From a virus (taxonomy: Duplodnaviria > Heunggongvirae > Uroviricota > Caudoviricetes): DNA of 16,972 nt. Position 1 is the stretch's first letter. Each line of letters begins with the position of its first letter. The DNA is taken from IMG/VR virus record IMGVR_UViG_2693429635_000010; one strand, written 5' to 3'. Under the pieces are notes generated by a model that was given only the letters and a program-made list of their open reading frames with translations, made no database searches and had not been told where the DNA came from. Shown piece after piece: positions 1,555 to 16,972 of the stretch. A program made the translations under genes and the position numbers.

Positions 1555-1603
1555 GGAAGCAGAATAATAATGGTGCGTAATTAATTCTGCAATCTCATCC
1601 GTT

Positions 1604-2533
1604 TCAAACGATTAAATCCTGAACTTCCCTGACTGTCTGCTCAAAACGTCCGGTCTCCAGCTCAACACCAATCGCACGACGCCCCAGTGCCATCGCCGCT
1701 TTTACCGTTGAACCCGACCCCATGAAAAAATCCGCAACCAGATCACCAGGACGACTACTTGCGCTGATTATCTGCTGCAGCATTTCTGCCGGTTTTTCGC
1801 ACGGATGTTTCCCGGGATAGAACTGCACCGGTTTATGTGTCCACACATCCGTGTACGGCACCTGCGCCGTCACACCAAAATACCGCCGCAGATGCTTATA
1901 TTCACTCTGCAGCTCCACATACTGCCGGTTCAGTGACGTATACGTATCCACCAGCTGGTGGTGGGGCTTTTCCAGTTCACCGCGCTGATGTTTCTCTTCT
2001 GCCACCCGGGCAAACAGCGACTGTAATTTCAGATAATCGCTTTCGTTCGGTAGCTGCCACTGACTGGCACTGAACCAGTGCGACACCATGTTTTTCTTTC
2101 CTGTGGCATCTGCAATCTGTTTTGCCGTTATCCCCAGGGCCGCGCGCGCATCACGAAAGTAAGAAATCAGCGGGGCCATCACATGCTGTTTCAGTGCACT
2201 GCCCTTCGCCGCATACCCGGCATCTTTCGGACGATACGGCCCCTGATAATGTTCCGCGAACAGAATGCGCTCTGTGACGGGGAAATACGCCCGCAGGCTT
2301 TCCTTGTTGCATCCGTTCCAGCGTCCGGACGGCTTCGCCCAGATAATATGGTTCAGCACACTGAAGCGTTCACGCATCATGATTTCGATATCAGATGCCA
2401 GGCGATGACCACAGAACAGGTAAAGACTTCCGGCAGGTTTCAGCACCCGCCAGAACTGCGCCAGACACTGGTCCAGCCACTTCAGGTAATCATCGTCGCC
2501 CTTCCACTGGTTATCCCAGCCCTCAGGCTTCAC
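1604..2533 (-). CDS. DNA methyltransferase (beta-class N6-adenine/N4-cytosine type); 5' boundary uncertain, the DPPY motif lies upstream of the first canonical start codon
   Basis: ORF-track protein ends with motif I (HPCEKP...DFFMGSGST). Extending the frame 5' by hand gives stop-LINADCLEFIRSLPENSVDLIVTDPPYFK-V(GTG at 2531-2533), so catalytic motif IV (DPPY) is in frame but has no ATG/GTG/TTG ahead of it. Confidence 0.6.
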   Translation of the reverse strand: MKPEGWDNQWKGDDDYLKWLDQCLAQFWRVLKPAGSLYLFCGHRLASDIEIMMRERFSVLNHIIWAKPSGRWNGCNKESLRAYFPVTERILFAEHYQGPYRPKDAGYAAKGSALKQHVMAPLISYFRDARAALGITAKQIADATGKKNMVSHWFSASQWQLPNESDYLKLQSLFARVAEEKHQRGELEKPHHQLVDTYTSLNRQYVELQSEYKHLRRYFGVTAQVPYTDVWTHKPVQFYPGKHPCEKPAEMLQQIISASSRPGDLVADFFMGSGSTVKAAMALGRRAIGVELETGRFEQTVREVQDLIV

Positions 2534-2790
2534 TTTAAAGTACGGCGGGTCCGTGACTATCAGGTCAACAGAATTTTCGGGTAACGACCGGATAAATTCC
2601 AGGCAGTCGGCGTTGATTAACTAACAACTGGATATTTTTACAGTATTAAGCATGGATCATTAAGCCTGTCTCTGATAGGCTCATTCTGCTTTTGCGCAAA
2701 GCAGTGGGCCTGAGGTTTGCTTGTGAACCCAACGCATGAGCAGATGGCTGGTGGGTGCCCCTAACACCTACCAGCCGCCCATTTACCACA

Positions 2791-2817
2791 AATAAAAAAG
2801 CCTTTACTGCGGAAGGC
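2791..2817 (-). terminator. Putative rho-independent terminator overlapping the stop codon of the small ORF
   Basis: Minus-strand RNA GCCUU-CCGCAGUA-AAGGC (5-bp stem, 8-nt loop containing the UAA stop) followed by UUUUUUAUU. Confidence 0.4.
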
Positions 2818-3001
2818 GTCTGTAACAACCGAACTGATAGTCTGCCAGACCCGCCATAACCAGCTGGGTCAGTATTAACTGGCAGCGTTCGCGTGAAAGG
2901 TAAGTATTCTGCGCAATCTCCCCGACTGTCGCCGGGTCGGTAACGCTTAATTCATTAAACACCACTCTGGCGGTTTCTGTCATATCCTGCTGTTTTAGCA
3001 T
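2804..3001 (-). CDS. Small hypothetical protein (65 aa), possible helix-turn-helix DNA-binding protein
   Basis: Internal ATG of track ORF 2804..3124 with AGGGA ~8 nt upstream: MLKQQDMTETARVVFNELSVTDPATVGEIAQNTYLSRERCQLILTQLVMAGLADYQFGCYRRLPQ. The track's longer N-terminal extension is hydrophobic low-complexity and overlaps the tR'-like terminator. Sits between two terminators. Confidence 0.4.
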   Translation of the reverse strand: MLKQQDMTETARVVFNELSVTDPATVGEIAQNTYLSRERCQLILTQLVMAGLADYQFGCYRRLPQ

Positions 3002-3124
3002 GTCTTTTTCCCTTTTCCGGTTAACGTGACACACCAATAACTCTTGTCGAAAAAGCCAGCAAGCTGAAAGAACGGTATTAATAACCACCAGCGAATTTAT
3101 TGCGCTGCTGTATATTACGGACAC

Positions 3125-3146
3125 AAAAAAACCACCTTCCGGTGGC
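3125..3146 (-). terminator. tR'-like rho-independent terminator ~100 nt downstream of the Q gene
   Basis: Minus-strand RNA G-CCACC-GGAA-GGUGG followed by 7 U (plus-strand A run 3125-3131). Position relative to Q mirrors the lambda pR'/tR' (6S RNA) layout. Confidence 0.55.
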
Positions 3147-3242
3147 TTCCTTGTGCGAAAAAACTTGCATTTCGCCTCGCGATACAGCTTTGCGAAGCTT
3201 ACAGGAATTCAAGCTGTTTCTGCGTAAAAAAGCAAGCTTTTT
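3147..3242 (-). promoter_or_regulatory. Putative late promoter (pR'-like) and Q-utilisation region between the Q stop codon and the tR'-like terminator
   Basis: Positional inference from lambdoid architecture only; several TTG.../TA...T hexamers are present on the minus strand but none could be fixed confidently by eye. Confidence 0.3.
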
Positions 3243-3785
3243 TTATCGAAATGAATCGTGCATAGGTACATAAAGCATGTGTTCAGCCACGGCTAACCAA
3301 CCTGCAATACGTTTCTCACATGTGCTGAAACACCATTCCGGGTGAGTACGATTTAAACATTCTGCCATTTTTCTCTTACTCATTCCCCGTCCTTCGTACC
3401 TTTGCCGGAGAATATTGATTAGCCCGGGATATTCCCCAAGCACCTCACTGATAACGCGATCAATAATCAACGCCTCTGTGTCTGTACAATGTGACAACCA
3501 GCTCTTCTGCTTCCCTCTGGTCATATCCCGAAAAAATGCCTCAAGTTCCGGTTTTTCCAGCCCGGATTTCTTCATGCTGCGTAAAACCTCATTAACTGCT
3601 GTTTTCGTCAGCTTTTTCGAAACCAGTAACCGGTTAAACATATTTCCGGATTTACCCCCACCGATATACGACCACCGCCCCCACATCCGTAATTTCCCCT
3701 GGATCCAGACTGCTTCCAGCGTGTTCAGGCGTAAATGTTCGCCGCTTTTGCCTGTAATTTCCGGATATATCATATTTACGCTCAC
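3243..3785 (-). CDS. Late-gene antitermination protein Q (phage 21/82-type Q family)
   Basis: 180-aa ORF directly downstream of rusA with overlapping stop/start (GTGA), followed by the tR'-like terminator; N-terminal LRMWGRWSY motif resembles the ERWGAW motif I recall from QuuD-type Q proteins. Confidence 0.55.
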   Translation of the reverse strand: MSVNMIYPEITGKSGEHLRLNTLEAVWIQGKLRMWGRWSYIGGGKSGNMFNRLLVSKKLTKTAVNEVLRSMKKSGLEKPELEAFFRDMTRGKQKSWLSHCTDTEALIIDRVISEVLGEYPGLINILRQRYEGRGMSKRKMAECLNRTHPEWCFSTCEKRIAGWLAVAEHMLYVPMHDSFR

Positions 3786-4141
3786 TCACTCTCAATTTTG
3801 TAAATCTTCACACCCAGCCGTCCACCAGATACTGGCTGACCACGTACAATATTGATTTCATCAAACTGCTCGTCATCAATGAGCACTCCCGCATGCGTCA
3901 GCGCATCCAGCGGTGCTTTCAGAATATTGTCCAGGTCACGACGACGCTTATCCGGTGGCTCTGCAATAATTTTTATTGCCAGCCGTCCGGACAGGCTTAA
4001 TTTCAGTCGCTGCTGGCGAACAATAAGCGCCACTGCCCGGCGATAACGCTCCCCGGCTTTTGATACAAAATATGTGCTGCCACGACGTCGCCAGTAAGTG
4101 TTCACTGTCGGCGGGTAAGGTAAAACCAAATCTATGAGCAT
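3782..4141 (-). CDS. rusA: Holliday-junction resolvase RusA
   Basis: 119-aa ORF with strong RBS (AGAGGTG, 5-nt spacer). Motifs LPYPPTVNTYWRRRG and RRRDLDN...DALTHAGVLIDDEQ match the RusA family as I recall the E. coli K-12 sequence. Confidence 0.8.
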   Translation of the reverse strand: MLIDLVLPYPPTVNTYWRRRGSTYFVSKAGERYRRAVALIVRQQRLKLSLSGRLAIKIIAEPPDKRRRDLDNILKAPLDALTHAGVLIDDEQFDEINIVRGQPVSGGRLGVKIYKIESE

Positions 4142-4153
4142 CAGTCACCTCTT

Positions 4154-5200
4154 TTACCCGAGCACGCCAGTCGCAAAGGCGTGATCAAGAAAACGAAAAA
4201 TTAACTCAATCTGAGAGCCGTACTTTTTCTCAAACTCCAGCGGGTCTGCATGAAGTTCGTTGTGGTGCTCCCGGCACAACGGTAACGTGAAAATATCGTG
4301 GGCCTTTGTCCCCATTCCCCCCTGACCATGACCAATCAGGTGATGCGGATCGTCAGCAGGCTTACCACAACACGCACACGGCTGTGTCTTCACCCAGCGC
4401 GTGTATTTCTCGTTAACCCAGCGGCGACGTTTAGGTCGTTTCATGAAAGATTCCGGAGACTCAGGATCAACGGCAATGCTGACCACCGTCTTTTCCTGTG
4501 GCGGGTTTTGCTGGTGGGCGTGAGGCAGCGGCGCAAGATTTTTTGTGCGCTGCTTCAGTATGCTGGTGGCGGTCTGCTCTCCCGGTACGATGTCGCTTTC
4601 ACGGTACATTGAGCGGATTTTTTCCGCACGCAACCCCAGCGAACGACGTAATACCGCTTCCGGTAGCGCGTCCGCCACCTGATTGCGGACCGCCCACCAG
4701 GATAATTCAGCCAGAGATAATTCCCGTTCCTGTGCACCACTTATTGCGTGACGTATGACGTCAATCATCCAGGCTGTCAGATTTTGTTGAGCAAGCTGCC
4801 CGAGTGATTCGGATGTCTGGTCGCGCAGCTGGTTGTCGCAGTGCCAGCACAACACCATTGCGCCGGTACCATAACGGTGAATGACGGTTTCACTGTGGTG
4901 ATAATCACCGTGTGGCCACTGGCAGGATTTAACATGGCGCAGTAACCAGTCAGACAATGCGCCAGCGCCACCAGCAGCACGAATCACTCGTTCGTCGCTG
5001 AAAAATGGCAGTAATGATTTATCCTCCGCCAGCGGCTGGCGAACGGCAGGAACGACCCCGGACGGCAGATTACGCATGCTTTTCGGTTCCGGCTCCACCA
5101 GTACCCGGGTATTGTGGAATACCGGCATGGATTCACGGCCCGGCTTAACGATCACCAGCCCGAGTTCCGGTACCAGAACAGGTCGAAGTAATACCCGCAC
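4154..5200 (-). CDS. DUF968-like (YdfU-like) nin-region protein with C-terminal Cys/His motif
   Basis: 348-aa ORF with GTG start and GGAGG 5 nt upstream; C-terminus carries CACCGKP...HHLIGHG...LCREHHNELH, a zinc-finger/HNH-like signature. Size and position match the DUF968 proteins of lambdoid prophages. Confidence 0.55.
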   Translation of the reverse strand: MRVLLRPVLVPELGLVIVKPGRESMPVFHNTRVLVEPEPKSMRNLPSGVVPAVRQPLAEDKSLLPFFSDERVIRAAGGAGALSDWLLRHVKSCQWPHGDYHHSETVIHRYGTGAMVLCWHCDNQLRDQTSESLGQLAQQNLTAWMIDVIRHAISGAQERELSLAELSWWAVRNQVADALPEAVLRRSLGLRAEKIRSMYRESDIVPGEQTATSILKQRTKNLAPLPHAHQQNPPQEKTVVSIAVDPESPESFMKRPKRRRWVNEKYTRWVKTQPCACCGKPADDPHHLIGHGQGGMGTKAHDIFTLPLCREHHNELHADPLEFEKKYGSQIELIFRFLDHAFATGVLG

Positions 5201-5201
5201 G

Positions 5202-5480
5202 TTACCTCCAGATGCGTTGCTGGAATGTGCGGGACGGACGCGGTGGTCGTTCGGAGTAAGGAAGCCTGACGGAGATTATCCAGTGACGATAATCGAGGCT
5301 GAGGGCTTTCTTAATCTCGTATCCGTGTCTGCGGTAGCACTGAATTAGCCACTCGGCCTGTTCTTCAGTGCATGGGGGATGCTGGAACCAGTCAGATTTG
5401 AAAGTGCGGGAACGCCGCCCGTGCCTGCTGGCAGGGGCGGCAGAGTTATCCGAATTGTAAAATTTGGTATCGTGCGCCAT
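5202..5480 (-). CDS. Hypothetical nin-region protein (92 aa), paralogue of 10055..10333
   Basis: Internal ATG of track ORF 5202..5609: MAHDTKFYNSDNSAAPASRHGRRSRTFKSDWFQHPPCTEEQAEWLIQCYRRHGYEIKKALSLDYRHWIISVRLPYSERPPRPSRTFQQRIWR. About 80% identical to the copy-B paralogue, supporting a real gene; weak RBS. Confidence 0.45.
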   Translation of the reverse strand: MAHDTKFYNSDNSAAPASRHGRRSRTFKSDWFQHPPCTEEQAEWLIQCYRRHGYEIKKALSLDYRHWIISVRLPYSERPPRPSRTFQQRIWR

Positions 5481-5549
5481 CTGTTTTCTCTGCTGGCGCA
5501 GCAGGTGCCAGTTGTTCAGGCTGACGGATGGATTGTAAACCAGAACGAC

Positions 5550-5579
5550 CAGAAAAAACAAAACCCGCCGAAGCGGGTT
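5550..5579 (-). terminator. hok mRNA 3' terminator
   Basis: Minus-strand RNA AACCCGC-UUCG-GCGGGUU followed by UUUUGUUUUUU (plus-strand A-rich run 5551-5561). Confidence 0.5.
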
Positions 5580-5647
5580 AAGTGCGGGTGCGTTGAGGAT
5601 GCCTGACACATCAGAGGTGGCGAGGGATTTCTCCCCCGCCAGGTCTC

Positions 5648-5803
5648 TTACTCCTCAGGTTCGTAAGCTGTGAAGACAGCGACCTCCGTCTGGCCGGTTC
5701 GGATTCGTACCTCGCAGAGGTCTTTCCTCGTTACCAGTGCCGTCACTATGACGGTTAAACAGATGACGATCAGGGCGATTAACATCGCCTTTTGCTGCTT
5801 CAT
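5648..5803 (-). CDS. hok: Hok-family type I toxin (51 aa, HokD-like)
   Basis: MKQQKAMLIALIVICLTVIVTALVTRKDLCEVRIRTGQTEVAVFTAYEPEE, embedded in track ORF 5648..5860; matches the Hok/Gef consensus, and I recall HokD (RelF) of E. coli as identical. Confidence 0.85.
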   Translation of the reverse strand: MKQQKAMLIALIVICLTVIVTALVTRKDLCEVRIRTGQTEVAVFTAYEPEE

Positions 5804-5993
5804 AGCCTGCTTCTCCTTGCCTTTCGGCACGTAAGAGGCTAACCTACATTTGTGAGACATAGATTGGGCCTCAGATTAATGTTAAGCGTCTTGCAGGACG
5901 CGTAATGTTAACTGGGGCTTTTCTCTATCTGCCTTTTGGTGTTCATGCCTGAGACAGATAGCCTCAAGCACCCGCAGCAATTCTACTTAACTC
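5804..5993. promoter_or_regulatory. hok mRNA leader (mok / fold-back region) with the expected antisense Sok RNA gene on the plus strand
   Basis: Established hok/sok architecture. An inverted repeat CTATCTG...CAGATAG is visible near 5925-5958. Sok promoter and ends were not mapped. Confidence 0.4.
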
Positions 5994-6049
5994 TCCTTTT
6001 CCCGCAAACCGTTTTTACCCGATATGGGAATTCCCATATCGTAATGAAT

Positions 6050-6154
6050 TCAGTTCCCTAGTCGATCCATCAAAAACACAACCAGGCAGTAAACGCCCAC
6101 AACAGCAACAACAGCCAGCGCACCTTCCATTGCCAGTGATATATCATCCGACAT
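6050..6154 (-). CDS. Small hydrophobic peptide (34 aa, single predicted TM helix), not in the ORF track
   Basis: Hand translation: GGAGGGAAT-ATG then MSDDISLAMEGALAVVAVVGVYCLVVFLMDRLGN-TGA. A diverged homologue sits at the same relative position beside the second hok locus (11159..11248). Confidence 0.35.
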   Translation of the reverse strand: MSDDISLAMEGALAVVAVVGVYCLVVFLMDRLGN

Positions 6155-6269
6155 ATTCCCTCCTTTGGTGTTAATCCCGGCGAACGTTTTTACCCCCACC
6201 GACAAATAACATATACTAAAAAAGCGATAGCCATAGCAACGCCTGTAATTGCAAATGCTTCAGGCCAGT

Positions 6270-7139
6270 TCATTGGCGCACCTCCTGCGGCGGTTCTGGT
6301 AGCGGCATCCAGTGTGACGGTTTCCACGACGCACCAGGAATTATCCACCCATCATTAGCGTCAGGATGACCCGGGATGTAAGTCGCCCATTTCATTCGCC
6401 AGTCACCTTTCCTGTCAAACTCCACGGCAACAAGAACGGCTGTTTTGGTATCCGGCATTCGCTCACTACAGCTTATCCAACTATCCGGAGTTACCGGATA
6501 GTTGCCCGATAGTGCATTCTGCTCCAGTGATGCTTTTACAAACCACGCTGCCTGAACTATAACGCCATGAATCCAGCGCAAATCAGCATCGCGATCTTTC
6601 TTTTTCATCTTTTCGCCACTTAAGGCCTTGCTTATGTGGCTGCGTACCAGGTCTTCATGTAATTCCTTCGCCTCCTCAATGGTGAAACCACCAGGCAGAA
6701 GAGCCGGAGTTACCGGAGAGCTGGTTGACGCTTCCGGGATTTTCCGAAAATTATTGGTTGACGAATCTTTATTTTCCCGAAAGTTTCCGGACTGAAGCAT
6801 GGCTTCGCGGCAATCGTTCCAGCCTGTAGCGTATGCAGCCGCTTTGCTGCTGCCTTCAACTGGCGCATCCTGCCAATACATTTCTTCCGGCACTATCGGC
6901 GCTGGAGGGGCGGCAAATAGATATCCGCCAAAGTCAGGAAGCTCTCTAATGGCCTGTACGAATTTTTGTTTGCCTACGTCAACCCCTAATGGGTAATGAG
7001 CTATAATCTTTGCCACCGGCTCTGCTTCCAGCGATGCCAGCGCAATCCGTGCCAGTTCCATTTGTTCACCACGGGTAAGCCCGTTTTCAACCGGATTTTT
7101 AATGAACAATTCAATACGTTCTTTGGTAATAGTGGTCAT
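6270..7139 (-). CDS. Hypothetical protein with DUF551-like C-terminal domain
   Basis: 289-aa ORF with RBS AAGGAG (7-nt spacer). C-terminus WISCSERMPD...GDWRMKWATY...WMPLPEPP resembles the DUF551 signature of lambdoid prophage accessory proteins. Confidence 0.5.
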   Translation of the reverse strand: MTTITKERIELFIKNPVENGLTRGEQMELARIALASLEAEPVAKIIAHYPLGVDVGKQKFVQAIRELPDFGGYLFAAPPAPIVPEEMYWQDAPVEGSSKAAAYATGWNDCREAMLQSGNFRENKDSSTNNFRKIPEASTSSPVTPALLPGGFTIEEAKELHEDLVRSHISKALSGEKMKKKDRDADLRWIHGVIVQAAWFVKASLEQNALSGNYPVTPDSWISCSERMPDTKTAVLVAVEFDRKGDWRMKWATYIPGHPDANDGWIIPGASWKPSHWMPLPEPPQEVRQ

Positions 7140-7149
7140 GTGTTACTCC

Positions 7150-7413
7150 TTAACCCGCAGTGCTTTCAACTGATGAGGGGAACAAAATCTTTTCATCAAA
7201 CCCTGCATTCATATCATGAACAGCAACACACCAATCCATCGACGAACGATTATCAAGAGCCTCCATGATTTCATCCATGCGGCGTAGGTCATACAGGTAA
7301 ATGCTTTTATCGCCAATGGTGTAAAAGCCAATTTTTTTCGGTGATGGACAGCGATCAAGAACTTCCTGTAATTCGTTTAACCATGCCCGTTCTTTTTTTG
7401 TCAAAGTTGCCAT
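7150..7413 (-). CDS. Hypothetical protein (87 aa)
   Basis: Internal ATG at 7411-7413 of track ORF 7150..7503, with AAGGA 8 nt upstream: MATLTKKERAWLNELQEVLDRCPSPKK... The track's longer start lacks an RBS and would overlap the upstream gene. Confidence 0.5.
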   Translation of the reverse strand: MATLTKKERAWLNELQEVLDRCPSPKKIGFYTIGDKSIYLYDLRRMDEIMEALDNRSSMDWCVAVHDMNAGFDEKILFPSSVESTAG

Positions 7414-7414
7414 A

Positions 7415-7633
7415 TCAGTTTTCCTTATACGGATTAATTTTATTGTGCAGTGTGTTGAACGACGCCCATACAACGTCGGTATACAATTCAGTAACTGGCT
7501 CAATTATTTTCCCGATTGCCCAGACAAAAATTAGAGGGGATATCGGTATCATCAATACGATAAACAGAATGAGAAACAAAAATTCTGTCGACCTACTTTT
7601 TTGCGGATATTCTTTTCTGAATAATGTAGTCAT
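7415..7633 (-). CDS. Hypothetical small membrane protein (72 aa)
   Basis: Track ORF with hydrophobic core FLFLILFIVLMIPISPLIFVWAIG; tightly packed between neighbouring minus-strand genes; RBS weak. Confidence 0.35.
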   Translation of the reverse strand: MTTLFRKEYPQKSRSTEFLFLILFIVLMIPISPLIFVWAIGKIIEPVTELYTDVVWASFNTLHNKINPYKEN

Positions 7634-7665
7634 TTCTTACCGCCCTTTCGGGCGGCCTCCCGACA

Positions 7666-7878
7666 TTAATCGTTGTGGTAACTCATGGCTTCATTTGCAG
7701 CATCAACCGGATCAACCTCCCACCAGCAATAATTTGGTGCGTTTCCTTCAGGTGTCCACGGTTCTAATTCATTTTTTGCCACATTCCCATCGCCAGTAAT
7801 TTTAAAAATCTGCTCAGAGAATTTTCTTGCCCACTCGTTATATTTTTCCGCATTAATGGCTTTCTGTGTATTTAACAT
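7666..7878 (-). CDS. Hypothetical protein (70 aa)
   Basis: Track ORF with RBS GGAGG 8 nt upstream of the ATG. Confidence 0.5.
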   Translation of the reverse strand: MLNTQKAINAEKYNEWARKFSEQIFKITGDGNVAKNELEPWTPEGNAPNYCWWEVDPVDAANEAMSYHND

Positions 7879-7983
7879 AAATATACCTCCAGTTAAGGAT
7901 TAAATTTTATTTACAGTGCTGAACTTAATTATTCAGATTTGGATTATGCTTTCTCTTCACGAAGTTCCGATTGTTAATTTGGC

Positions 7984-8406
7984 TCACAACAGCACCTTCT
8001 GAAAATTACCCTGATAGAAAGCCAGTACACGCTGCATAGCTTCGCTCTTCCGGCACTCGCTACAGATTATGTTCAGACGCCTGTCGTAGCGGCGTATTTC
8101 TCCGTCTGGTAATGACCAGATAAGATCCGGATCAACCACAGATGGTTTCTTCACCTTTGCCCTAGATAGTTTTTTGCGGGCATTTTGCCAGTCCTTACGA
8201 GCCTGTTCAGACGGGAATAACCCGTAACCAGAGTTGTATACATCGCCACTGGCAACCAGCTCTCTGGCGAGAACGCTCATCAGATATCTTGTCGCACCTG
8301 TCCTGGCTTCCAGTTGCCGTAACGTCTCGCGCCCACTCCGGCGTACTAGTTCAACAACCTGCCCTTTAATTTTTTCCCGCTCTTCTTGTGTAAATACTTT
8401 TGCCAT
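7984..8406 (-). CDS. Hypothetical protein (140 aa), paralogue of 15628..16050
   Basis: ATG at 8404-8406 with GGAGG 6 nt upstream (the track's TTG start at 8421 would overlap the RBS): MAKVFTQEEREKIKGQVVELVRRSGRETLRQLEARTGATRYLMSVLARELVASGDVYNSGYGLFPSEQARKDW...; ~90% identical to the right-hand copy. Confidence 0.55.
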   Translation of the reverse strand: MAKVFTQEEREKIKGQVVELVRRSGRETLRQLEARTGATRYLMSVLARELVASGDVYNSGYGLFPSEQARKDWQNARKKLSRAKVKKPSVVDPDLIWSLPDGEIRRYDRRLNIICSECRKSEAMQRVLAFYQGNFQKVLL

Positions 8407-8421
8407 AAGCGCCTCCGGCAA

Positions 8422-9192
8422 TCACTTTTCCGATACAACACGGCGGGAAGAATCAGTAATCTGTCGAACAATATCCCGGTGCTTGTTCAGCTCCCGCAGC
8501 GCGGCGCAGACTCGCTCCCACTTCTGAACATCACTTTTCGCCCTGCGCAGCGCCAGGTTTGCCCTGCGAAGGGACGGAAAAATCAGCTCATCTGCTTGCG
8601 TTTCGGTAAACGATGGCAACGGCTGCACAATGTCCGCCACAGTTTCTGTTTTAATTTCTTCCTGTGTTGCGGCTTCCCGGACTGGTAACGCAGCACCTGC
8701 TGGCTGAGGAAAGGCCTTACCATCACTTTCCGTTACCAGCGCGGCTTTCGGCTCTGCTGGTAAATTATCGCCCGGCATGCAGTAACGAAATTTACCGTTC
8801 TGATTAACGCGTGCCAGCCGCCCCGTTGCGGTTACCACCGCCAGCGTGGAAGCAACCTTGCGAGTACTGACACCGAACTTACCCGCCAGTTCCTCACACG
8901 TTTTAGCCCCATCCTGACCGATAAACTCAATCATCATGTCTGCGGTAACTTTTTGTTCGACCTCCCCGGTCAGCATATCCTGTGCTTCAGATTTTACTGG
9001 CCGCTCTTCGGTTACCCGGGATTCACCTTCGCCAGCCAGAAACCAGGTGTGACCAGTTTTATCAACGACGCCATTTCTTTTGAGTTCCCACAGCTCGTTG
9101 ACAGCCTCTTCACGACTGATTCCAAGGCTGGCCGCCACTACCTGTGAAGAGGCTCTTTTCAGTGCTTTCAGTGCGTCAAATACGGTTTCCAT
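8422..9192 (-). CDS. Hypothetical protein (256 aa) with winged-helix-like N-terminus
   Basis: ATG at 9190-9192 with GGAGG 8 nt upstream (track uses an upstream TTG at 9210). N-terminus METVFDALKALKRASSQVVAASLGISREEAVNELWELKRNGVV suggests a DNA-binding fold. Confidence 0.45.
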   Translation of the reverse strand: METVFDALKALKRASSQVVAASLGISREEAVNELWELKRNGVVDKTGHTWFLAGEGESRVTEERPVKSEAQDMLTGEVEQKVTADMMIEFIGQDGAKTCEELAGKFGVSTRKVASTLAVVTATGRLARVNQNGKFRYCMPGDNLPAEPKAALVTESDGKAFPQPAGAALPVREAATQEEIKTETVADIVQPLPSFTETQADELIFPSLRRANLALRRAKSDVQKWERVCAALRELNKHRDIVRQITDSSRRVVSEK

Positions 9193-9225
9193 TAATATTT
9201 CCTCCGACAAAATCGTTTCTCAGAT

Positions 9226-9888
9226 TCAAATAAAACCAGCTGCCTTCCGGCGTTCGTATTCCTGTTTCAGCCGTTCAATTGGCGTTGGCCCTTGCGGGTG
9301 TTTCGCCCCTTCCAGTTGTCGTCGCACTGGCGGAACACTCATCCCGTTACCAACATGCTTTGCCCATTTCGTCAGTTGCCGTTCCGCAAGTCGTTTTAAC
9401 TCACCCTGCGTCATCTGGCGCTCAATCCCTCTGGTACGCATTTCGAGGCAGATGTGGTACAGCACAGGCTGTGGCCACGGGTATTTATCACTCCCGTCGT
9501 ATCGCCAGGATTCATTGCGCCAGCGCCGGTACTCTTCCATCACTGCATCCACCGTAAGACCAAATGGATTTGCCCCACTCTCCGAAATCAGTGCAACAAA
9601 CTCAGCCAGGTCCGGGGGCCACGTTTCACCCGCCCGGCAGCGGTCCATGCACTGACGGCAGACCAGCCGGATTTGCTGTTCAGTCATCGCGCCAATCTGG
9701 GCAATCCAGAGCTTCGAAGGTGCGGCCCCGTTCTTCTGTGTCCAGCGGTTCGAATACACCTCCCCCATAAGCTCCCACAGCTTCCAGGCCGTTTCCGTTG
9801 CTGATAAATCCGTTGTCACGTTCCCACTGTTCGCGTGCTGCCCGGATTTCCTGAACTGCCCGTGATGCCGTGCCACCTGATGCTGCAT
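9226..9888 (-). CDS. Replication protein P-like (lambda P family, helicase loader)
   Basis: 220-aa ORF with RBS AAGGGGG 5 nt upstream. The blocks TEQQIRLV...TWPPDLAEFVALISE and VDAVMEEYRRW...YPWPQPVLYHICLEM...TQGELKRLAERQL...VPPVRRQL resemble lambda P as I recall it. No O-like gene lies directly upstream. Confidence 0.5.
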   Translation of the reverse strand: MQHQVARHHGQFRKSGQHANSGNVTTDLSATETAWKLWELMGEVYSNRWTQKNGAAPSKLWIAQIGAMTEQQIRLVCRQCMDRCRAGETWPPDLAEFVALISESGANPFGLTVDAVMEEYRRWRNESWRYDGSDKYPWPQPVLYHICLEMRTRGIERQMTQGELKRLAERQLTKWAKHVGNGMSVPPVRRQLEGAKHPQGPTPIERLKQEYERRKAAGFI

Positions 9889-9891
9889 GGC

Positions 9892-10053
9892 TTACCCCCT
9901 TGCTGACTGGTTAGACGGCAGATTACGCATGCTTTTCGGTTCCGGCTCCACCAGTACCCGGGTATTGTGGAATACCGGCATGGATTCACGGCCCGGCTTA
10001 ACGATCACCAGCCCGAGTTCCGGTACCAGAATAGGTCGAAGTAATACCCGCAC
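9892..10053 (-). pseudogene. Truncated 5' fragment of a DUF968-family gene (53 codons), recombination remnant
   Basis: GTG at 10051-10053 opens a frame encoding MRVLLRPILVPELGLVIVKPGRESMPVFHNTRVLVEPEPKSMRNLPS, nearly identical to the N-terminus of the 4154..5200 protein; it then diverges at the repeat boundary (9913/9914) and stops after 7 further codons, just upstream of the P-like gene. Confidence 0.5.
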
Positions 10054-10054
10054 G

Positions 10055-10333
10055 TTACCTCCAGATGCGTTGCTGGAATGTGCGGGACGGACGCGGTGGG
10101 CGTTCGGAGTAAGGAAGCCTGACGGAGATTATCCAGTGACGGTAGTCGAGGCTAAGGGCTTTTTTAACCTCGTATCCGCGCCTGCGGTAACACTGAATTA
10201 TCCATTCAGCCTGCTCTTCAGTGCATGGTGGATGCTGGAACCAGTCCGATTTGAATGCATGAAAACGCCGTCCGCACCTGCTGGCAAAGACGGCAGAATC
10301 ATCAGAATTGTGTAATTTGGTATCGTGCGCCAT
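10055..10333 (-). CDS. Hypothetical nin-region protein (92 aa), paralogue of 5202..5480
   Basis: Internal ATG of track ORF 10055..10444: MAHDTKLHNSDDSAVFASRCGRRFHAFKSDWFQHPPCTEEQAEWIIQCYRRRGYEVKKALSLDYRHWIISVRLPYSERPPRPSRTFQQRIWR. Confidence 0.45.
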   Translation of the reverse strand: MAHDTKLHNSDDSAVFASRCGRRFHAFKSDWFQHPPCTEEQAEWIIQCYRRRGYEVKKALSLDYRHWIISVRLPYSERPPRPSRTFQQRIWR

Positions 10334-10694
10334 CGGTTGTCTCTGCTGGCGCAGCAGGTGCCAGTTGTTCAGGCTGGCGTATAAAGTATAAATAAACTGG
10401 TTCCAGTGTAAAGCCCCTACATTAATGGAATAAAAGTCAAACAACAGATTGTTGGGATAAACACAACGCTTATTATTAAAAGCGATTAGATAAATTAAAT
10501 TTTAATGTTATGCAATTTTACCAGATCACCATAACATCTCGTTTGAAACCACCGAAACAACAACCATATCAATATTGATTATGTTAAAGTGAGTAAATAT
10601 GGAAAACAACAAATCTGCACATTACGCTCCTTTTTTATCTGTGATACTTTTTGTTTTATGCTGTGTGTGGGCATTATTTTTATAAAAATATTTA

Positions 10695-10723
10695 CAGATA
10701 AAATAAACCCGCCGAAGCGGGTT
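10695..10723 (-). terminator. hok mRNA 3' terminator (second copy)
   Basis: Same AACCCGC-UUCG-GCGGGUU hairpin as at 5562-5579, followed on the minus strand by UUUAUUU. Confidence 0.45.
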
Positions 10724-10791
10724 AAGTGCGGGTGCATTGAGGATGCCTGACACATCAGAGGTGGCGAGGGATTTCTCCCTCGCCGGGTCTC

Positions 10792-10947
10792 TTACTCCTC
10801 AGGTTCGTAAGCTGTGAAGACAGCGACCTCCGTCTGGCCGGTTCGGATTCGTACCTCGCAGAGGTCTTTCCTCGTTACCAGTGCCGTCACTATGACGGTT
10901 AAACAGATGACGATCAGGGCGATTAACATCGCCTTTTGCTGCTTCAT
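10792..10947 (-). CDS. hok: Hok-family type I toxin (51 aa), second copy
   Basis: Encodes the same 51-aa protein as 5648..5803, embedded in track ORF 10792..11004. Confidence 0.85.
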   Translation of the reverse strand: MKQQKAMLIALIVICLTVIVTALVTRKDLCEVRIRTGQTEVAVFTAYEPEE

Positions 10948-11136
10948 AGCCTGCTTCTCCTTGCCTTTCGGCACGTAAGAGGCTAACCTAGATTTGCCGT
11001 TCATAGATTGAGCCTCAGATTAATGTTAAGCGTCTTGCAGGACGCGTAATGTTAACTGGGGCTTTTCTCTATCTGCCGTTGGTGTTCATGCCTGAGACAG
11101 ATAGCCTCAAGCACCCGCAGCCATTCTACTTAACTC
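10948..11136. promoter_or_regulatory. hok mRNA leader / expected antisense Sok region (second copy)
   Basis: Near-identical to 5804..5993. Confidence 0.4.
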
Positions 11137-11158
11137 CCGTCACCTCGCCAATATGAAA

Positions 11159-11248
11159 TCAGTCAGAAAGGCGATCCATAAGAACAACAGCAAGGCAATA
11201 AATTGCCATTACAGCAGCAATAGCCAGCGCACATTTGAGAACCAGCAC
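11159..11248 (-). CDS. Small hydrophobic peptide (29 aa), homologue of 6050..6154, not in the ORF track
   Basis: AGGAGG then GTG (5-nt spacer): (M)LVLKCALAIAAVMAIYCLAVVLMDRLSD. Shares the A-rich hydrophobic core and LMDRL C-terminal motif with the copy-A peptide; lies in a different frame from the Cys-rich track ORF 11163..11471. Confidence 0.3.
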   Translation of the reverse strand: MLVLKCALAIAAVMAIYCLAVVLMDRLSD

Positions 11249-11544
11249 CACAACCTCCTGTATTGGACGTACACCAGTCCTGATAAATATGAGGCTGTCT
11301 CGTCAGTGATTCAATACAACTATTGGGTATAGTTTCTGTGATTTTGTTCTGTAGAAATGGAACACAACAACCAGTCACCACCAGCACTTCTTTAAATACG
11401 CCAAGTCCGACGCAAGCTAACCTTCTAGGCCGCTTTGAGCGAAGAGCGGACGCTCGCATCTGTCCCAACACACTGAGGGCTTCACGAACACCTAGGTGTA
11501 CTCGTCAACTGGGAAAAAGTCAGATTATCTGCGTAAGTTTCAGC

Positions 11545-11572
11545 GTAAAAATTGGGCACTATAAAAGTGCCC
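11545..11572 (-). terminator. Rho-independent terminator 3' of the large NTPase gene
   Basis: Minus-strand RNA GGGCAC-UUUUAUA-GUGCCC (6-bp stem) followed by AAUUUUUA, starting ~25 nt after the TAG stop at 11596-11598. Confidence 0.5.
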
Positions 11573-11595
11573 AAACTGTAGAAAAATACATAATG

Positions 11596-14500
11596 CTATG
11601 TATCTGAGCCAAACATAGAGCGCCGCCTTGTTATTTTATAATAAGTGGGATTTTCATTATCCACCTCAAAATCAGAGAAGAAGTGGTTATCTCTTAATGC
11701 TGTTAATAAACTTTGATTAGTTGAATCAACTTCAATTTTAGGTTTGCCTCGCCCCAAAATTTTACTGAACTCCGATAAACCAAGCAGATCAAGATACTCT
11801 TTGCAAGTCGTCTTACTCAAATCCTTACCCGGCAACAAAGCGATTAGCAGTGCTATTTTATTCTGCATATTCAGTCCCTCTGCGACAAACAGGTTTTTTA
11901 GTAACGGTTCAGAAACATCATTAGGACTTGCTATCAATGCTGATATATCCTGTATTGCTCGACTCAAGATGAGCGACTGAGTAGAGGTTCCCCAAGTTTT
12001 ATAAGATGACGTCAAGATTAGAAGTTCATCTGGTTTAAAATTATTTTCTAAAATATAGTCATTAACGACCTGAGAGTAATTCTTACTATAAATAGCCAAC
12101 GGAGTTTTAACAAACTCGAGTAGCTTAACTTTCAAATCATCATCAACTTTCCAAGAAAGTATTGATATAGCCTCATCCAAAATAAAGTTATCAATCGTCA
12201 TTAATTCAACGTATGCCCTGATATTCTTATGAATATAATAGGAAAGTTGCTCTGAATAGTTATCTCGTATGAAATTAAGTGGCGCAACATTCATACGAAT
12301 AATATTTTTATCCACTAATATTTTGAACTTATCACTCGCGATATCACTAGCGCTAAAGGATGTTTTACAAATAATATTTAGTGAGCAAATTAATTTTTCA
12401 TATTTATCATTTGATAAATCATTACAGATAACAATCGATTTAAATAATTTACCTTTAAGCTCGTTATCAATATTAATATTTTGAAAATTCAGGTCTACAT
12501 CAGTTCTATTGATAAATTCGATAAGTGAGTCATCCAGTCCATCAACATGTTCAAAATAAGAGACAATATTTTCCTCAGAGCACACTGCTCTATCTTTATC
12601 CAACAAAGATGACCATAAAGATTCGCTCTCAACCTCACTCAGAGATGTCACGAAAGTTTGCAAAGCGTTTATATACTGGCCTTTTTGTTCATCAGATATT
12701 CCCTCATTATTAAGAACGGATAAAACAATGGATTCATCATCCACGATTGAACCATCACAACTAGATAAAACCATATCCAGATAGTCCCTAATATGGTTAT
12801 TAACATAACTAGCCAAGGGAGAATCAGGTTGTGACATCACTAGTGTATAGTTCTTATGGCGAATATCATCTTCACTATTAAGCGTGTAAACCTTACTCAG
12901 CATTAAGGTCAGGTTGGAAAAATTAATATCATAAAGTGAATGCTGGTAAACCGCATCAAAGAGTACTTTATTTGCGTTTTCAAATTTAATACTGACAAAA
13001 GAGACGTTAAGCAACTTAAAACCACTAATTAATTTGTCAACCTTTGGTTCTGATATTGCTAAATAACCTGCCGAATCAGAGATGTAATCAGTCAGACAAT
13101 CATCAATATTAATGGCCTCGATGGCGTCATTGGCAGAATAATAAAACGTGCCTATAGAGTAGAGTTTAACCCAATCAGCAGAAAATTCACTCTCTGTCAG
13201 CGCATAAGAAAAAAACTCAGGCCACTGTGTATTTAATCGATTAATGAAGACAGGCTGAGCCCTCTCAGTTTCAAAGTAACCACGAATAAACTCAACTCTT
13301 CTATCTTTTCTTAGTTGTTTGAATAAACGTTTTATTAAGTTTACCAGGGCTGGCGTTTGAAGCAGATAAGCTAATAAATCAAAATTAAGCGCCTCTTCCT
13401 GTTCAAAATCCACTTCTCGAAGGCGGGCAACGACCAGCTTGGGGTTCTTGAGTTGATAAGTGAACTCTTTGCCTTTTTGATCGGTAATGCTGCGTAAAAA
13501 CATCTTATCAATTCGACTCAGGCTATTTTCATAAAAATAGGTCATATAGTCGGTATAGGTTTCATCAATATAACCATCACGAATAAGGTATTTAAGCAAG
13601 TCAAAATACTCACTGCTTTTTATTTCATTAAAGTCTCTTTCCTCTCCAATTTCATTGGTATAGGTGAGTTTAAATATTTCATCAATGTTTTCTCTAGTTA
13701 TTACTTCTTTAAGTCTTTTGTTTCTAGAATCAACCAAACTTTCTCTTGATCTTGATATAAGCTCATTAATTTCTTCTATTTTACCATTAAATTTATTTTC
13801 AACACTTTCTTTTCTAGCCGCCCTTCTCTTTGCTATATCAGCTTTCTCAGCCTGATTATAGTGAGGATGATTATTATATCTAGATAATTCCTTATCGTAT
13901 ATAGCATCAACCTCCTGACTAGAGTTGAGTATTTCATCATTGATTGCCTCAATCTCTTTTTTTCTATCTCTAATATCTTTTTCTATTTTCTTTATTTCTT
14001 CAATAATAAGGTTGTCTTTTTCACTAAATATGGTATAAACCATACCTTGATTAAGTTGCAACTCACTAAAATCTCTTGGGAAAATATTCTTATAGGCAAT
14101 AATGGCCAACATTTTATTACAGTCAAGTTCTGTCGTGTTTAATTTGTTATAATAAATTTGAAATTCGTTATAAATATTCTTCAATATTCTCATATCATCA
14201 ATATATAAAGACATCCCTTGTAGAAATCTTTCATTGAACAACTTGAGAATACCACCACCATCAAAATGTGTGATAAACTGATCGTAAGAGTTAGAACTAT
14301 CAACAACAGGAATAACTGGAATGATATAATCAAAGAATTTGGTTCTATCCTTCGAAATGAAGATATCATCACGAAGCAAGTAAATAAAACGTAACGTCGA
14401 TTTCTTGTGCCCTGCTGTGTCCCGTTGAATATTAACCAGTCTGTTAACCTCATGAAGACGTTCAAAGATGTTATTACTATTAAAACGGTCCATGTCTTCA

Positions 14501-15228
14501 AAAACAATGGCATCAGCATCAACGTTCTCGAAAAGGTACAATACTTCATTTAAATATCTATCGAAATAAGACTCGTTACTTTCTTCAAAAATCTCTATTT
14601 CATTACCCTGTAAATTTATTTTCTTAAGAACATTACGATTCTTTTGGGTTTTTATTAACTTGTAAATGAAAATACAAGATAGGATAGTACATATAAACCC
14701 ACTAATTAAAAGCGTATCGTATTTAGTTGATAATGTAAGTAGTGTCTTTATATTACCTTCAGATAAAAGTGAAACAAACTTTTCCCACTTATTAAATAGC
14801 GTGATATGTAGTATCATAGCGATAAATAACACCGTAAAGATGGTGTTTATCACAATGTTGTTAGTTTTTATTTTTTTCTTTACTTTAAAATGTGTCTGGG
14901 GAATATCATCAGCATTAATTTGGTGAATTAACTGGTTAAGAACTTTACCTTCTAACGCGGTTTCATTTATATCTTTACTTGGTTCATTAGTTTCAGCTTC
15001 CTCAATCGATCTGAAATGAGCAAGTGAGATATGAACAAACTTTATATTTGAATGACTTTTCTTATAGGATTCGATAAGACTACTTTTTCCTGCGCTATAT
15101 TGCCCTGATATCGCAACATTTTTTAGATCGTTATTGGCAAAAACAAAATCTATCGCATTTTTATATACACCCAGCTCAACATCGCTGAACGGCGTTAACT
15201 TTTGAAATTTATAGCTATCATCACTCAT
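11596..15228 (-). CDS. Large KAP-type P-loop NTPase (1210 aa): Walker A, two hydrophobic helices, Walker B, coiled-coil region and ~700-aa C-terminal region of unknown function; candidate defence/abortive-infection protein
   Basis: Single uninterrupted 3.6-kb ORF, ATG at 15226-15228 with AAGGGA RBS. Walker A SGQYSAGKSS (aa 41-50); hydrophobic helices NIVINTIFTVLFIAMILHITLF (~aa 124-145) and LLISGFICTILSCIFIYKLI (~aa 171-192); Walker-B-like DAIVFEDMD (~aa 238-246); K/E-rich coiled-coil-like stretch ~aa 400-510. Gene body is visibly AT-rich relative to the flanks. Confidence 0.7.
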   Translation of the reverse strand: MSDDSYKFQKLTPFSDVELGVYKNAIDFVFANNDLKNVAISGQYSAGKSSLIESYKKSHSNIKFVHISLAHFRSIEEAETNEPSKDINETALEGKVLNQLIHQINADDIPQTHFKVKKKIKTNNIVINTIFTVLFIAMILHITLFNKWEKFVSLLSEGNIKTLLTLSTKYDTLLISGFICTILSCIFIYKLIKTQKNRNVLKKINLQGNEIEIFEESNESYFDRYLNEVLYLFENVDADAIVFEDMDRFNSNNIFERLHEVNRLVNIQRDTAGHKKSTLRFIYLLRDDIFISKDRTKFFDYIIPVIPVVDSSNSYDQFITHFDGGGILKLFNERFLQGMSLYIDDMRILKNIYNEFQIYYNKLNTTELDCNKMLAIIAYKNIFPRDFSELQLNQGMVYTIFSEKDNLIIEEIKKIEKDIRDRKKEIEAINDEILNSSQEVDAIYDKELSRYNNHPHYNQAEKADIAKRRAARKESVENKFNGKIEEINELISRSRESLVDSRNKRLKEVITRENIDEIFKLTYTNEIGEERDFNEIKSSEYFDLLKYLIRDGYIDETYTDYMTYFYENSLSRIDKMFLRSITDQKGKEFTYQLKNPKLVVARLREVDFEQEEALNFDLLAYLLQTPALVNLIKRLFKQLRKDRRVEFIRGYFETERAQPVFINRLNTQWPEFFSYALTESEFSADWVKLYSIGTFYYSANDAIEAINIDDCLTDYISDSAGYLAISEPKVDKLISGFKLLNVSFVSIKFENANKVLFDAVYQHSLYDINFSNLTLMLSKVYTLNSEDDIRHKNYTLVMSQPDSPLASYVNNHIRDYLDMVLSSCDGSIVDDESIVLSVLNNEGISDEQKGQYINALQTFVTSLSEVESESLWSSLLDKDRAVCSEENIVSYFEHVDGLDDSLIEFINRTDVDLNFQNINIDNELKGKLFKSIVICNDLSNDKYEKLICSLNIICKTSFSASDIASDKFKILVDKNIIRMNVAPLNFIRDNYSEQLSYYIHKNIRAYVELMTIDNFILDEAISILSWKVDDDLKVKLLEFVKTPLAIYSKNYSQVVNDYILENNFKPDELLILTSSYKTWGTSTQSLILSRAIQDISALIASPNDVSEPLLKNLFVAEGLNMQNKIALLIALLPGKDLSKTTCKEYLDLLGLSEFSKILGRGKPKIEVDSTNQSLLTALRDNHFFSDFEVDNENPTYYKITRRRSMFGSDT

Positions 15229-15309
15229 TGATATCCCTTCCCAATCTTCACCGAGAGAGCTGGCTTTCGGAGTTAATCAAACAAAATCATGCAGATAAAA
15301 TTTCGCCTT

Positions 15310-15345
15310 ATTATAGCAGACACAACTGCAAAGATTAGCTAAAGC
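15310..15345 (-). promoter_or_regulatory. Putative promoter of the NTPase gene (extended -10 type)
   Basis: Minus-strand TGcTATAAT (hexamer complementary to 15310-15315, TG complementary to 15317-15318), ~85 nt upstream of the start codon; no convincing -35, as is typical for extended -10 promoters. Confidence 0.35.
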
Positions 15346-15627
15346 CTCGTTGTTTTCTTCATCTATCCCTATAATTTTACACTACAGTTAGCACTTACTA
15401 TACCTGAAAGCTTTGCTCGTAAAGAGCACAATCGCAAGTCAGCAAAGCACGACTTTGCAATCGAGCGCCGCTAAAACAGTGCTGAATCGCTACGACTTAG
15501 GCAGCCATCTTATCGGTTGGCAGATAATTTCTAACTTCCGCTTCTGGCACAAAGCGGACAACCACGATAGCTCTATCCTGTGCCACAAAATGTCAATTCA
15601 CATCTTAACTAATGCATTTTAATCTCG

Positions 15628-16050
15628 TCACTTTAATAAATACCGAACATTCCCCTGATAAAACGACAATATGCGCTGCATAACTTCGCTTTTACGACAC
15701 TCAGTACAAATTATATTATGATGCCTGTCGTAACGACGTATTTCTCCATCAGGTAATGACCAGATAAGGTCCGGATCAACCGCAGATGGTTTCTTCAGCT
15801 TTGCCCTTGAGAGCTTTTTACGGGCATTTTGCCAGTCCTTACGCGCCTGTTCAGACGGGAATAACCCGTAACCAGAATTGTATACATCACCGCTGGCAAC
15901 CAGCTCTCTCGCGAGAACGCTCATCAGATATCTTGTCGCACCTGTCTTGACTTCCAGTTGTCGTAACGTCTCACGCCCACTCTGGCGTACGAGTTCAACA
16001 ACCTGCCCTTTAATTTTTTCTCGCTCTTCTTGTGTAAATACTTTTGCCAC
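15628..16050 (-). CDS. Hypothetical protein (140 aa), paralogue of 7984..8406
   Basis: GTG start with AGGAGG 4-5 nt upstream: MAKVFTQEEREKIKGQVVELVRQSGRETLRQLEVKTGATRYLMSVLARELVASGDVY... Confidence 0.55.
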   Translation of the reverse strand: MAKVFTQEEREKIKGQVVELVRQSGRETLRQLEVKTGATRYLMSVLARELVASGDVYNSGYGLFPSEQARKDWQNARKKLSRAKLKKPSAVDPDLIWSLPDGEIRRYDRHHNIICTECRKSEVMQRILSFYQGNVRYLLK

Positions 16051-16090
16051 AAGTCCTCCTGAAAATTACCTCATGACCTGAAATAAACAC

Positions 16091-16972
16091 TTACCCCCTG
16101 AAGCCCGGCGGAATTTCGGTATCCGGTTCAGAAATATGATTCACACAACGCTGGTTGTTCGTGCCGTTTACCGGGAGCAACCAGGGGTTTTCAAAATTCC
16201 GGTCCGGTCCAAAAAACGTCGTCGCTCGCTGAACAAATTCCGTTCCCGTTTTCCCGGTAACCGCTAGGTATCTTGCGTAACGCCTCACGCCATCCAGCAT
16301 GGCCTCTGGTGGCACCCCCTCGCGTAATCTGGCCTTCCAGGCACTGAAAGCGGATTTCTTCGGGTTTGCCCCGGCACGCAACGGGTACTCCCGCCAGATC
16401 TGTTCGAACACATCCGGATAATCCACTCGTCCCACAGACTGCCCGGTGTTTTCCGGGACTACCCGATCGGCTTCCCGCTGAATGGCGGAATCGGCTTCGG
16501 GCTGCCGCAGTTGGTGTGATTGCTCCGGCCTTGCGGTCATCACCTGCTGCACAGCGCCCGAATCGGCTTTCAGCGCATACGCTGAATCGGCTTCCGGTGT
16601 CGTGCCTGCTGGCTGACCAGGATTGACGGTCTGAACATCCCCTGCCTGGTTCGTGGCGTTTTTTACGCCATGGACCATAGTGTTTTGATCTTCTTGATCT
16701 GTATCTTTATCTGTATCTTTATCTGTCGTGACTCGTCGTGACATGTGCGTGACATTTCGTGACGCGCCGTGACAATCGCCATTTTGTTCCCGCTTTCTTT
16801 CCCTCTCTCGCTGCGCCCTCTTGCGCTCTGCAGGAGATTTTGCGGTTTGCGAAATATTGCCGTTGTCCTCTTTCAGCACCTGGCGTTTTTCCCATCCAGT
16901 GATTAAATCACCATCAAGTACCCGCCCCTGCATCGTCTGCAAAATTGAATCAATTACCTCTTCTGTCACGTC
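16091..16972 (-). CDS. Replication-initiator-like protein (lambda-O-like organisation: acidic linker encoded by an iteron array, conserved C-terminal domain); 5' end outside the window
   Basis: Frame is open to the right window edge (codon at 16970-16972 is in frame), so the track's GTG at 16969 is not necessarily the start. Internal DNA repeats encode ...SRRVTTDKDTDKDTDQEDQ...; C-terminal domain DYPDVFEQIWREYPLRAGANPKKSAFSAWKARL...FFGPDRNFENPWLLP. The family call rests on gene position and repeat structure, not a confirmed homology. Confidence 0.45.
   Translation of the reverse strand, partial: DVTEEVIDSILQTMQGRVLDGDLITGWEKRQVLKEDNGNISQTAKSPAERKRAQRERERKREQNGDCHGASRNVTHMSRRVTTDKDTDKDTDQEDQNTMVHGVKNATNQAGDVQTVNPGQPAGTTPEADSAYALKADSGAVQQVMTARPEQSHQLRQPEADSAIQREADRVVPENTGQSVGRVDYPDVFEQIWREYPLRAGANPKKSAFSAWKARLREGVPPEAMLDGVRRYARYLAVTGKTGTEFVQRATTFFGPDRNFENPWLLPVNGTNNQRCVNHISEPDTEIPPGFRG
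16685..16773. repeat. Iteron-like array (putative replication origin) inside the initiator-like gene
   Basis: Five CGTGAC motifs starting at 16727, 16737, 16748, 16758 and 16768 (10-11 bp spacing, one per helical turn); two tandem 12-bp repeats ATCTGTATCTTT (16697-16720) plus a partial third; two GATC sites in TTGATC repeats (16685-16699). Confidence 0.5.

Follow-up and report, generated by a model that had tools for sequence, protein, structure and literature searches.

A single N separates the two halves of an apparent DUF968–P gene fusion in a draft E. coli prophage contig: a probable scaffolding artefact

The window, that is, the whole 16,972-nucleotide stretch of DNA analysed here, is the entire draft contig CXZY01000049.1 of assembly GCA_001283525.1, to which it was traced by a look-up of the 53-aa product discussed below. 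Gene functions were taken from Pfam assignments and from the gene calls of the contig record. All genes of interest lie on the minus strand of the window and are given here in the direction of the genes, X and Y standing for the two prophages to which the copies are assigned further on:

16969-16091, minus strand: initiator-like (replisome organizer) gene, a 292-codon fragment
16050-15628, minus strand: DUF977, X copy
15228-11596, minus strand: YobI-type P-loop NTPase, 1,210 aa
11004-10792, minus strand: hokD, X copy
10444-10055, minus strand: small gene, X copy (92/129-aa)
10053-9892, minus strand: 53-codon ORF
9888-9226, minus strand: lambda-P-like ORF, 220 codons as the longest ORF (PF06992)
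9210-8422, minus strand: DUF1627
8421-7984, minus strand: DUF977, Y copy
between the Y copies of DUF977 and hokD, minus strand: several small genes and a DUF551 gene
5860-5648, minus strand: hokD, Y copy
5609-5202, minus strand: small gene, second copy (92/135-aa)
5200-4154, minus strand: DUF968, full length
after DUF968 in the gene direction: RusA, a DUF1133 Q-like antiterminator, a DNA methyltransferase and three tRNA genes
within 1-4796, minus strand: SASA/DUF1737 gene, start only

A preliminary description had presented the 53-codon ORF as a DUF968 gene fragment fused by recombination directly upstream of P. The ORF, with its GTG start, is present as claimed (9892..10053, minus strand), and DNA identity with the full-length DUF968 copy does end at 9913/9914: in the alignment of 9860-10460 with 5007-5620 the last matching base is 9914, and the near-identity of the two DUF968 copies breaks off after …CTGCCGTC, of which 9914 is the final base. 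The repeat families to which these stretches belong (300-nt, 96–97% identity) are well above the chance expectation. At the protein level, the 47 N-terminal residues match those of the product of 4154..5200 except at residue 8 (I8/V8), which bears out the proposed kinship; as an account of the letters, the preliminary description is correct. The kinship is confined to these 47 residues and lies outside the domain: since the DUF968 domain occupies residues 160-345 of the full protein, the ORF has no match to PF06147, or to any other Pfam family. Beyond residue 47 the ORF reads NQSARG and ends with TAA at 9894-9892, the next ATG being at 9888. The 53-aa product was found in no protein record other than that of CXZY01000049.1. 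The shared stretch contains an exact repeat, at the last base of which the X-derived sequence ends:

9914-10031 = 5061-5178, no strand assigned: exact repeat R, 118 nt

X and Y are identical over 5061-5178; the two copies differ on either side of it, at 5179/10032 and at 5060 (A in X, G in Y), the latter position being the homologue of 9913. Across this point, the DUF968 gene of X itself reads …CTGCCGTCTGGGGTCG….

Base-by-base comparison of the window with CXZY01000049.1 revealed one difference, and it falls on the breakpoint:

9913, no strand assigned: N in the public record and A in the window, where X-derived and Y-derived sequences meet (n at position 7060 of L002)

This is the single N among the 16,972 bases of the record, which reads …atctgccgtc n aaccagtca… at this point; it had already been replaced by an ordinary A before the preliminary description was made. 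The codon for Ser 47 of the 53-codon ORF spans the N (TCN). The ORF is made up of codons 1–46 and two bases of codon 47 of the X DUF968 gene and, past the N, of six out-of-frame codons from the tail of the Y initiator gene, followed by the stop. Thus, the public record holds no uninterrupted determined sequence over 9913 and, as the breakpoint is the only N of the contig, the physical junction is not demonstrated; with A displayed in its place, a gap in a draft assembly takes on the appearance of a clean gene fusion.

The sequences on the two sides of the N correspond to separate, intact loci of a closely related finished genome, E. coli 19AR0254 (NZ_CM132280.1), which carries prophage X at 2.445-2.457 Mb (L010) and prophage Y at 2.987-2.993 Mb (L004), about 0.53 Mb apart and on opposite strands. 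X occupies a Qin-like site and Y adjoins potC. In gene order, X comprises cI/Cro-type regulators, YdaT, the organizer, DUF977, YobI, hokD, the small gene, DUF968, RusA and the Q-like gene, whereas Y comprises YdaT, a DnaT-domain initiator, P, DUF1627, DUF977, further genes, hokD, the small gene and DUF968, followed at its downstream end by RusA and the Q-like gene. Both parents are intact in 19AR0254, X having a full DUF968 gene and Y a full initiator gene (338 aa), and their hokD-to-DUF968 segments are near-identical. Compared with these loci, the window falls into three segments:

9914-16972, minus strand: X-left, from the 3' part of the organizer to the first 140 nt of DUF968
4797-9912, minus strand: Y-derived block, from the initiator tail to the 5' part of DUF968
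1-4796, minus strand: X-right, from the 3' part of DUF968 to the start of the SASA/DUF1737 gene

The stretch 9913-16972 is identical to prophage X of 19AR0254 at 7060/7060 positions, and X-left differs from strain 22-245 (L003) at two; 4797-9912 is colinear with prophage Y and identical to it at 5113/5116 positions (99.94%); 1-4796 is again identical to X, with no mismatch to X of 19AR0254 below 4907. Judged by these matches, the layout of the contig is X-left, N and Y-middle, the last passing into X-right. Five genomes match the window at 99.2% over just 12.1 kb, i.e. without 4,853 bases.

The passage from Y to X takes place within the full-length DUF968 gene. Its first part is of Y type, at least as far as 4907, and the sequence from 4796 onwards in the gene direction is of X type; the change falls within the intervening 110 nt (4797-4906), over which the two prophages do not differ. 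In a site-by-site comparison, every X/Y-informative site from 5620 to 4907 has the Y allele in the window. Since the three X/Y differences at 5060, 4937 and 4907 are all synonymous, the 348-aa DUF968 protein cannot discriminate X from Y; this protein was considered as a marker of a natural Y/X hybrid, and its sole other occurrence is in an X-type metagenome contig. A return to X-type sequence below 4797 is not what a single reciprocal crossover between the prophages predicts. Such an exchange would have produced an inversion or a deletion with no second Y block, would have fused X-left to Y from initiator codon 263 and would have destroyed the Y initiator; in its favour, X and Y have opposite orientations in 19AR0254, so that a crossover there would give an inversion with this very junction. 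However, reads across a unique junction would have defined position 9913 and carried the repeat into the right-hand piece, whereas an N and no overlap are seen, and we consider a single crossover very improbable.

On the right-hand side of the N, the identification of the product of 9226..9888 as P-like is borne out by a match to Phage_lambda_P (PF06992; E 1.3e-15, 58 bits against a cut-off of 26), in which residues 58-187 of the ORF align with positions 31-161 of the 162-position profile. By contrast, the statement that this P has no O-like partner does not hold, as the stretch immediately upstream is the 3' end of a DnaT-domain initiator gene, its native partner:

9680-9912, minus strand: initiator remnant of Y type, consisting of two bases of codon 262, codons 263-338 and the stop

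Thus, the last 76 codons of the initiator remain upstream of P, whereas the DnaT DNA-binding domain (PF17948, residues 194-260 of the intact 338-aa Y protein) and everything upstream of it are gone. Intact relatives are 100% identical to the window up to 9912, where Y natively continues as …GGGCACAGGTAAAACCAG…. In every intact relative examined, P is preceded and overlapped by a gene for a DnaT-domain protein of 338–345 aa, named in RefSeq as a DnaT-like ssDNA-binding or DUF1376 protein; a short ORF natively preceding P, which would have explained the arrangement without any breakpoint, was not seen in them. The segment joining initiator tail and P is contiguous in 1,250/1,253 of the genomes that have it. 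The module resembles lambda O–P in that, in intact relatives, the P-family product directly follows and overlaps an initiator gene with an iteron-like array. It differs in that the initiator is not lambda O but a protein of 338–345 aa with a DnaT ssDNA-binding domain, and in that the two genes overlap by roughly 85–135 nt instead of abutting. The closest named phage to the Y initiator and P is Escherichia phage Rac-SA53, with its Rac-type ydaU–ydaV module (87.9% DNA identity over 70% of the query), in which the counterpart of the Y initiator is annotated as ydaU/primosomal protein I. The order YdaS/YdaT–initiator–loader is common to both, but identity reaches only 88% and the 5' third of the initiator gene lies outside the match.

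The preliminary description had also taken the O-like gene 6 kb away for the displaced partner of P. It is instead the replisome organizer of the other prophage type, X, and the gene that comes after it natively in X-type prophages is DUF977, P being absent from them:

16091-16972, minus strand: 3' part of the organizer, cut by the contig end, with the iteron-like array inside

Pfam assigns no family to either the 292-aa fragment or the full 356-aa protein, and NCBIfam gives a sub-threshold match to the DnaT C-terminal model (19 bits against a cut-off of 201); the protein is named ‘phage replisome organizer’ in RefSeq, and no profile of a known phage initiator family in these two libraries matches it above threshold. 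The iteron-like array (16692-16774) consists of three copies of the 12-nt unit TCTTTATCTGTA at 16692-16727 and about five copies of the 10–11-nt unit GTCGTGACAC at 16725-16774. The 5' halves of the organizer and of the Y initiator are 98% identical (16704-16972 corresponds to 11014-11282 of L004), the iteron-like array included, whereas their 3' halves are unrelated and P follows only the DnaT-type half. This pattern of sequence conservation suggests modular initiators, in which a putative common origin-binding part would be combined with differing loader-recruiting parts. The relatedness of the initiators is also what would favour a scenario in which a single prophage had its O-like/P-like pair pulled 6 kb apart by a breakpoint and the NTPase moron. 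Against it, the arrangement of organizer, DUF977, YobI (or a CPBP protease), hokD and DUF968, with no P, is native in several complete genomes, the native upstream gene of P is a different, DnaT-domain allele whose tail is still attached to it in the window, and X-left and the Y block each derive from a prophage of their own. Accordingly, this scenario is scarcely credible. What survives of the proposed separation of initiator and P by a breakpoint is that the discontinuity at 9913 does cut P off from its native initiator body in the contig; the discontinuity coincides, however, with the N, and the organizer at 6 kb belongs to the other prophage.

The relation between initiator and P also bears on where P starts, which had been placed 4 nt after the stop of the 53-codon ORF. 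We used a codon-substitution test in which variants among five alleles differing by 5–14% were scored as silent or changing in each reading frame:

upstream of the ATG at 9888: initiator frame, 10 silent and 4 changing; P frame, 2 silent and 13 changing
ORF codons 1–28: initiator frame, 5 silent and 2 changing; P frame, 1 silent and 6 changing
ORF codons 29–67: initiator frame, 1 silent and 12 changing; P frame, 12 silent and 1 changing

The ATG at 9888 exists, but the first 28 codons that follow it are constrained in the initiator frame, and near ORF codon 29 the P frame takes over from the initiator frame as the one under purifying selection (within 9687-9888, corresponding to 10462-10663 of L004). 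This switch indicates that the public P starts, at 9888 (Prodigal, 220 aa) and at 9687-9685 (PGAP, 153 aa), look wrong; the true start is probably the ATG at 9768-9766 or the GTG at 9819-9817. Roughly the final 40 codons of the initiator, judging by the same substitutions, appear to overlap P and to be unconstrained.

The junction itself is found in none of the 5,426 complete E. coli genomes searched. A pattern of the junction allowing 0–3 free bases at the N was likewise absent from viral contigs, species-representative genomes and metagenome contigs, while the native sequences over the two sites, which served as positive controls, had matches in 102 viral contigs for one site and in at least 120 for the other. 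Among the genomes without the junction are four strains with a prophage X of at least 99.2% identity overall, and no independent genome or assembly with the junction was recovered in these searches. A sample count of 2 for the contig was considered as possible independent replication; finished genomes give the same count, which probably stands for duplicate archive copies. X and Y share no microhomology at the 9913 site, i.e. the junction is blunt. Nor does it coincide with a natural mosaic boundary, since the common boundary in this initiator gene lies about 330 nt further upstream (window-equivalent 16704), and four further contexts of the identical P ORF as well as four diverged alleles continue with Y sequence at 9912. 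A third prophage of 19AR0254 was considered as a source of a repeat fork at 9912: this genome has a second match to a 600-nt span around the site but none to its upstream half. As megablast needs a 28-nt exact word, the second match is uninformative; it is most simply a Rac-like module diverged to roughly 86–88%.

Taken together, these data suggest that the ‘fusion’ is probably a scaffolding artefact, a join unsupported by sequence and not contiguous DNA of the strain, and we infer that the join is false rather than a true adjacency with one unresolved base. The strain would probably have two lambdoid prophages, X and Y, like its relative 19AR0254, and two separately assembled short-read pieces would have been placed side by side and written with a single N. 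The X-left piece would cross the 118-nt X/Y repeat and halt one base before the first X/Y difference; as this difference follows the repeat, read-based extension is ambiguous at the X-left end. The second piece would begin in the Y initiator gene, track Y into DUF968 and exit on the X side. The 53-codon ORF would then be the start of the intact DUF968 gene of X, read over the N, the DnaT-domain initiator of P would be intact elsewhere in the genome, and neither replication module would be altered. In favour of an artefact, the end of X-left coincides with the repeat boundary, one base before an X/Y SNP. In this respect the locus resembles single-N scaffold joins in short-read drafts, where one N stands between segments matching two loci of a finished relative and the left piece extends no further than the base at which a repeat becomes ambiguous; it differs from them in that no known repeat boundary marks the beginning of the right piece and in that a linking repeat was not found. 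Indeed, the start of the right piece at 9912 coincides with no repeat or mosaic boundary in the eight related loci compared, and an intact, single-copy Y gives a contig no obvious reason to begin there. Scaffolders link contigs by read-pair evidence; a search for a repeat able to make false read pairs between the two ends found none. Moreover, the Y-to-X switch at 4797-4906 demands a second error. As for the assembly parameters, the contig end at 16972, situated 98 nt inside an exact X/Y repeat of 353 nt, suggests a k-mer length of 99, and this value is not reproduced at position 1, where the fit to an X/Y repeat is not of that kind.

The features that fit an artefact poorly are those expected if the join is real, that is, if a strain-private duplicative recombination copied a 4.85-kb Y segment into X and left Y intact elsewhere, which we regard as possible but doubtful. 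The copied segment would extend from initiator codon 263 via P, DUF1627, DUF977 and hokD and end in the 5' part of DUF968, with homologous recombination at 4797-4906 on one side and, on the other, a blunt, illegitimate join at DUF968 nucleotide 140 or a little beyond it. The N would be one unresolved base between two repeat forks, and the 53-codon ORF a true truncated DUF968 gene. An extra Y block in X would turn 9912 and 9914 into true graph forks and predict exactly the observed layout: the sequence in common with the other DUF968 copy ends with base 9914, and that in common with native Y begins with base 9912. A short node of the graph at the junction could drop out, and a scaffolder guided by read pairs would then put the pieces together with one N between them. 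Furthermore, the pieces are joined in the record, for which read pairs connecting them are normally needed, the contig runs through the repeat at 5061-5178 with no N, as it should if contigs overlap there, and the Y alleles at 5060, 4937 and 4907, followed by a single switch to X, resemble one conversion tract. Y also encodes a RecE-like exonuclease, and its likely origin, the iteron-like array, is predicted to lie about 300–400 nt upstream of the breakpoint. Homology-facilitated illegitimate recombination combines one homologous anchor with one illegitimate join. If the join were real, the homologous switch at 4797-4906 and the non-homologous junction at 9913 would follow this scheme, although the outcome would be a duplication–insertion and not a replacement, microhomology is lacking and the junction is not sequenced.

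Against a real copy, no recorded sequence spans the junction, which is missing from the 5,426 complete genomes and the three contig collections, the four X-bearing strains included, and microhomology is absent. In addition, the X-side end abuts an X/Y SNP, for which a random breakpoint has a roughly 2% chance unless the N hides more X sequence, and such events are rare compared with scaffolding errors in drafts of E. coli with several prophages. As scaffolding errors are much commoner than private blunt duplicative transfers, an artefact is favoured over the better mechanical fit of a real join.

If the join is a scaffolding artefact, the truncated DUF968 gene, the orphan P and the scar do not exist, and the question of whether replication was lost no longer arises. 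A real join would represent a copy from prophage to prophage and not the split of one O–P pair: X would keep its own complete organizer–DUF977 replication module, so that nothing alarming would follow for replication, and gain P, DUF1627 and DUF977 without their initiator, providing one more private case of prophage–prophage mosaicism, useful to specialists in prophage dynamics but unsurprising. Under either reading the feature is ordinary, and the main value of the check is one of caution, in that it exposed a masked N; E. coli drafts with several prophages are a rich source of such pseudo-junctions.

Several further features of the window are independent of the junction. The YobI NTPase gene (11596-15228) has a GC content of 0.30–0.34 against about 0.52 in its surroundings and occupies the DUF977/hokD interval of X-type prophages, where related prophages have a CPBP-family protease; the site looks like a slot for moron or defence-type cargo. 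DUF977 closes both replication modules (in X it comes right behind the organizer, in Y it follows P and DUF1627), and the two copies (15628-16050 and 7984-8421) share 88–89% DNA identity; the conserved position suggests a replication-linked role. The two hokD loci (Hok/Gef toxin; 5648-5860 and 10792-11004) derive one from each parental prophage, and their surroundings are 97% identical, with a difference of about 290 nt in the length of the spacer between hokD and the small gene. Finally, the three tRNA genes, at 1305-1554 downstream of the methyltransferase gene, are identified by ARAGORN as Arg(tct), Arg(tcg) and Met(cat); the third is annotated as tRNA-Ile in RefSeq relatives, in which case its CAT anticodon would be read as Ile after lysidine modification.
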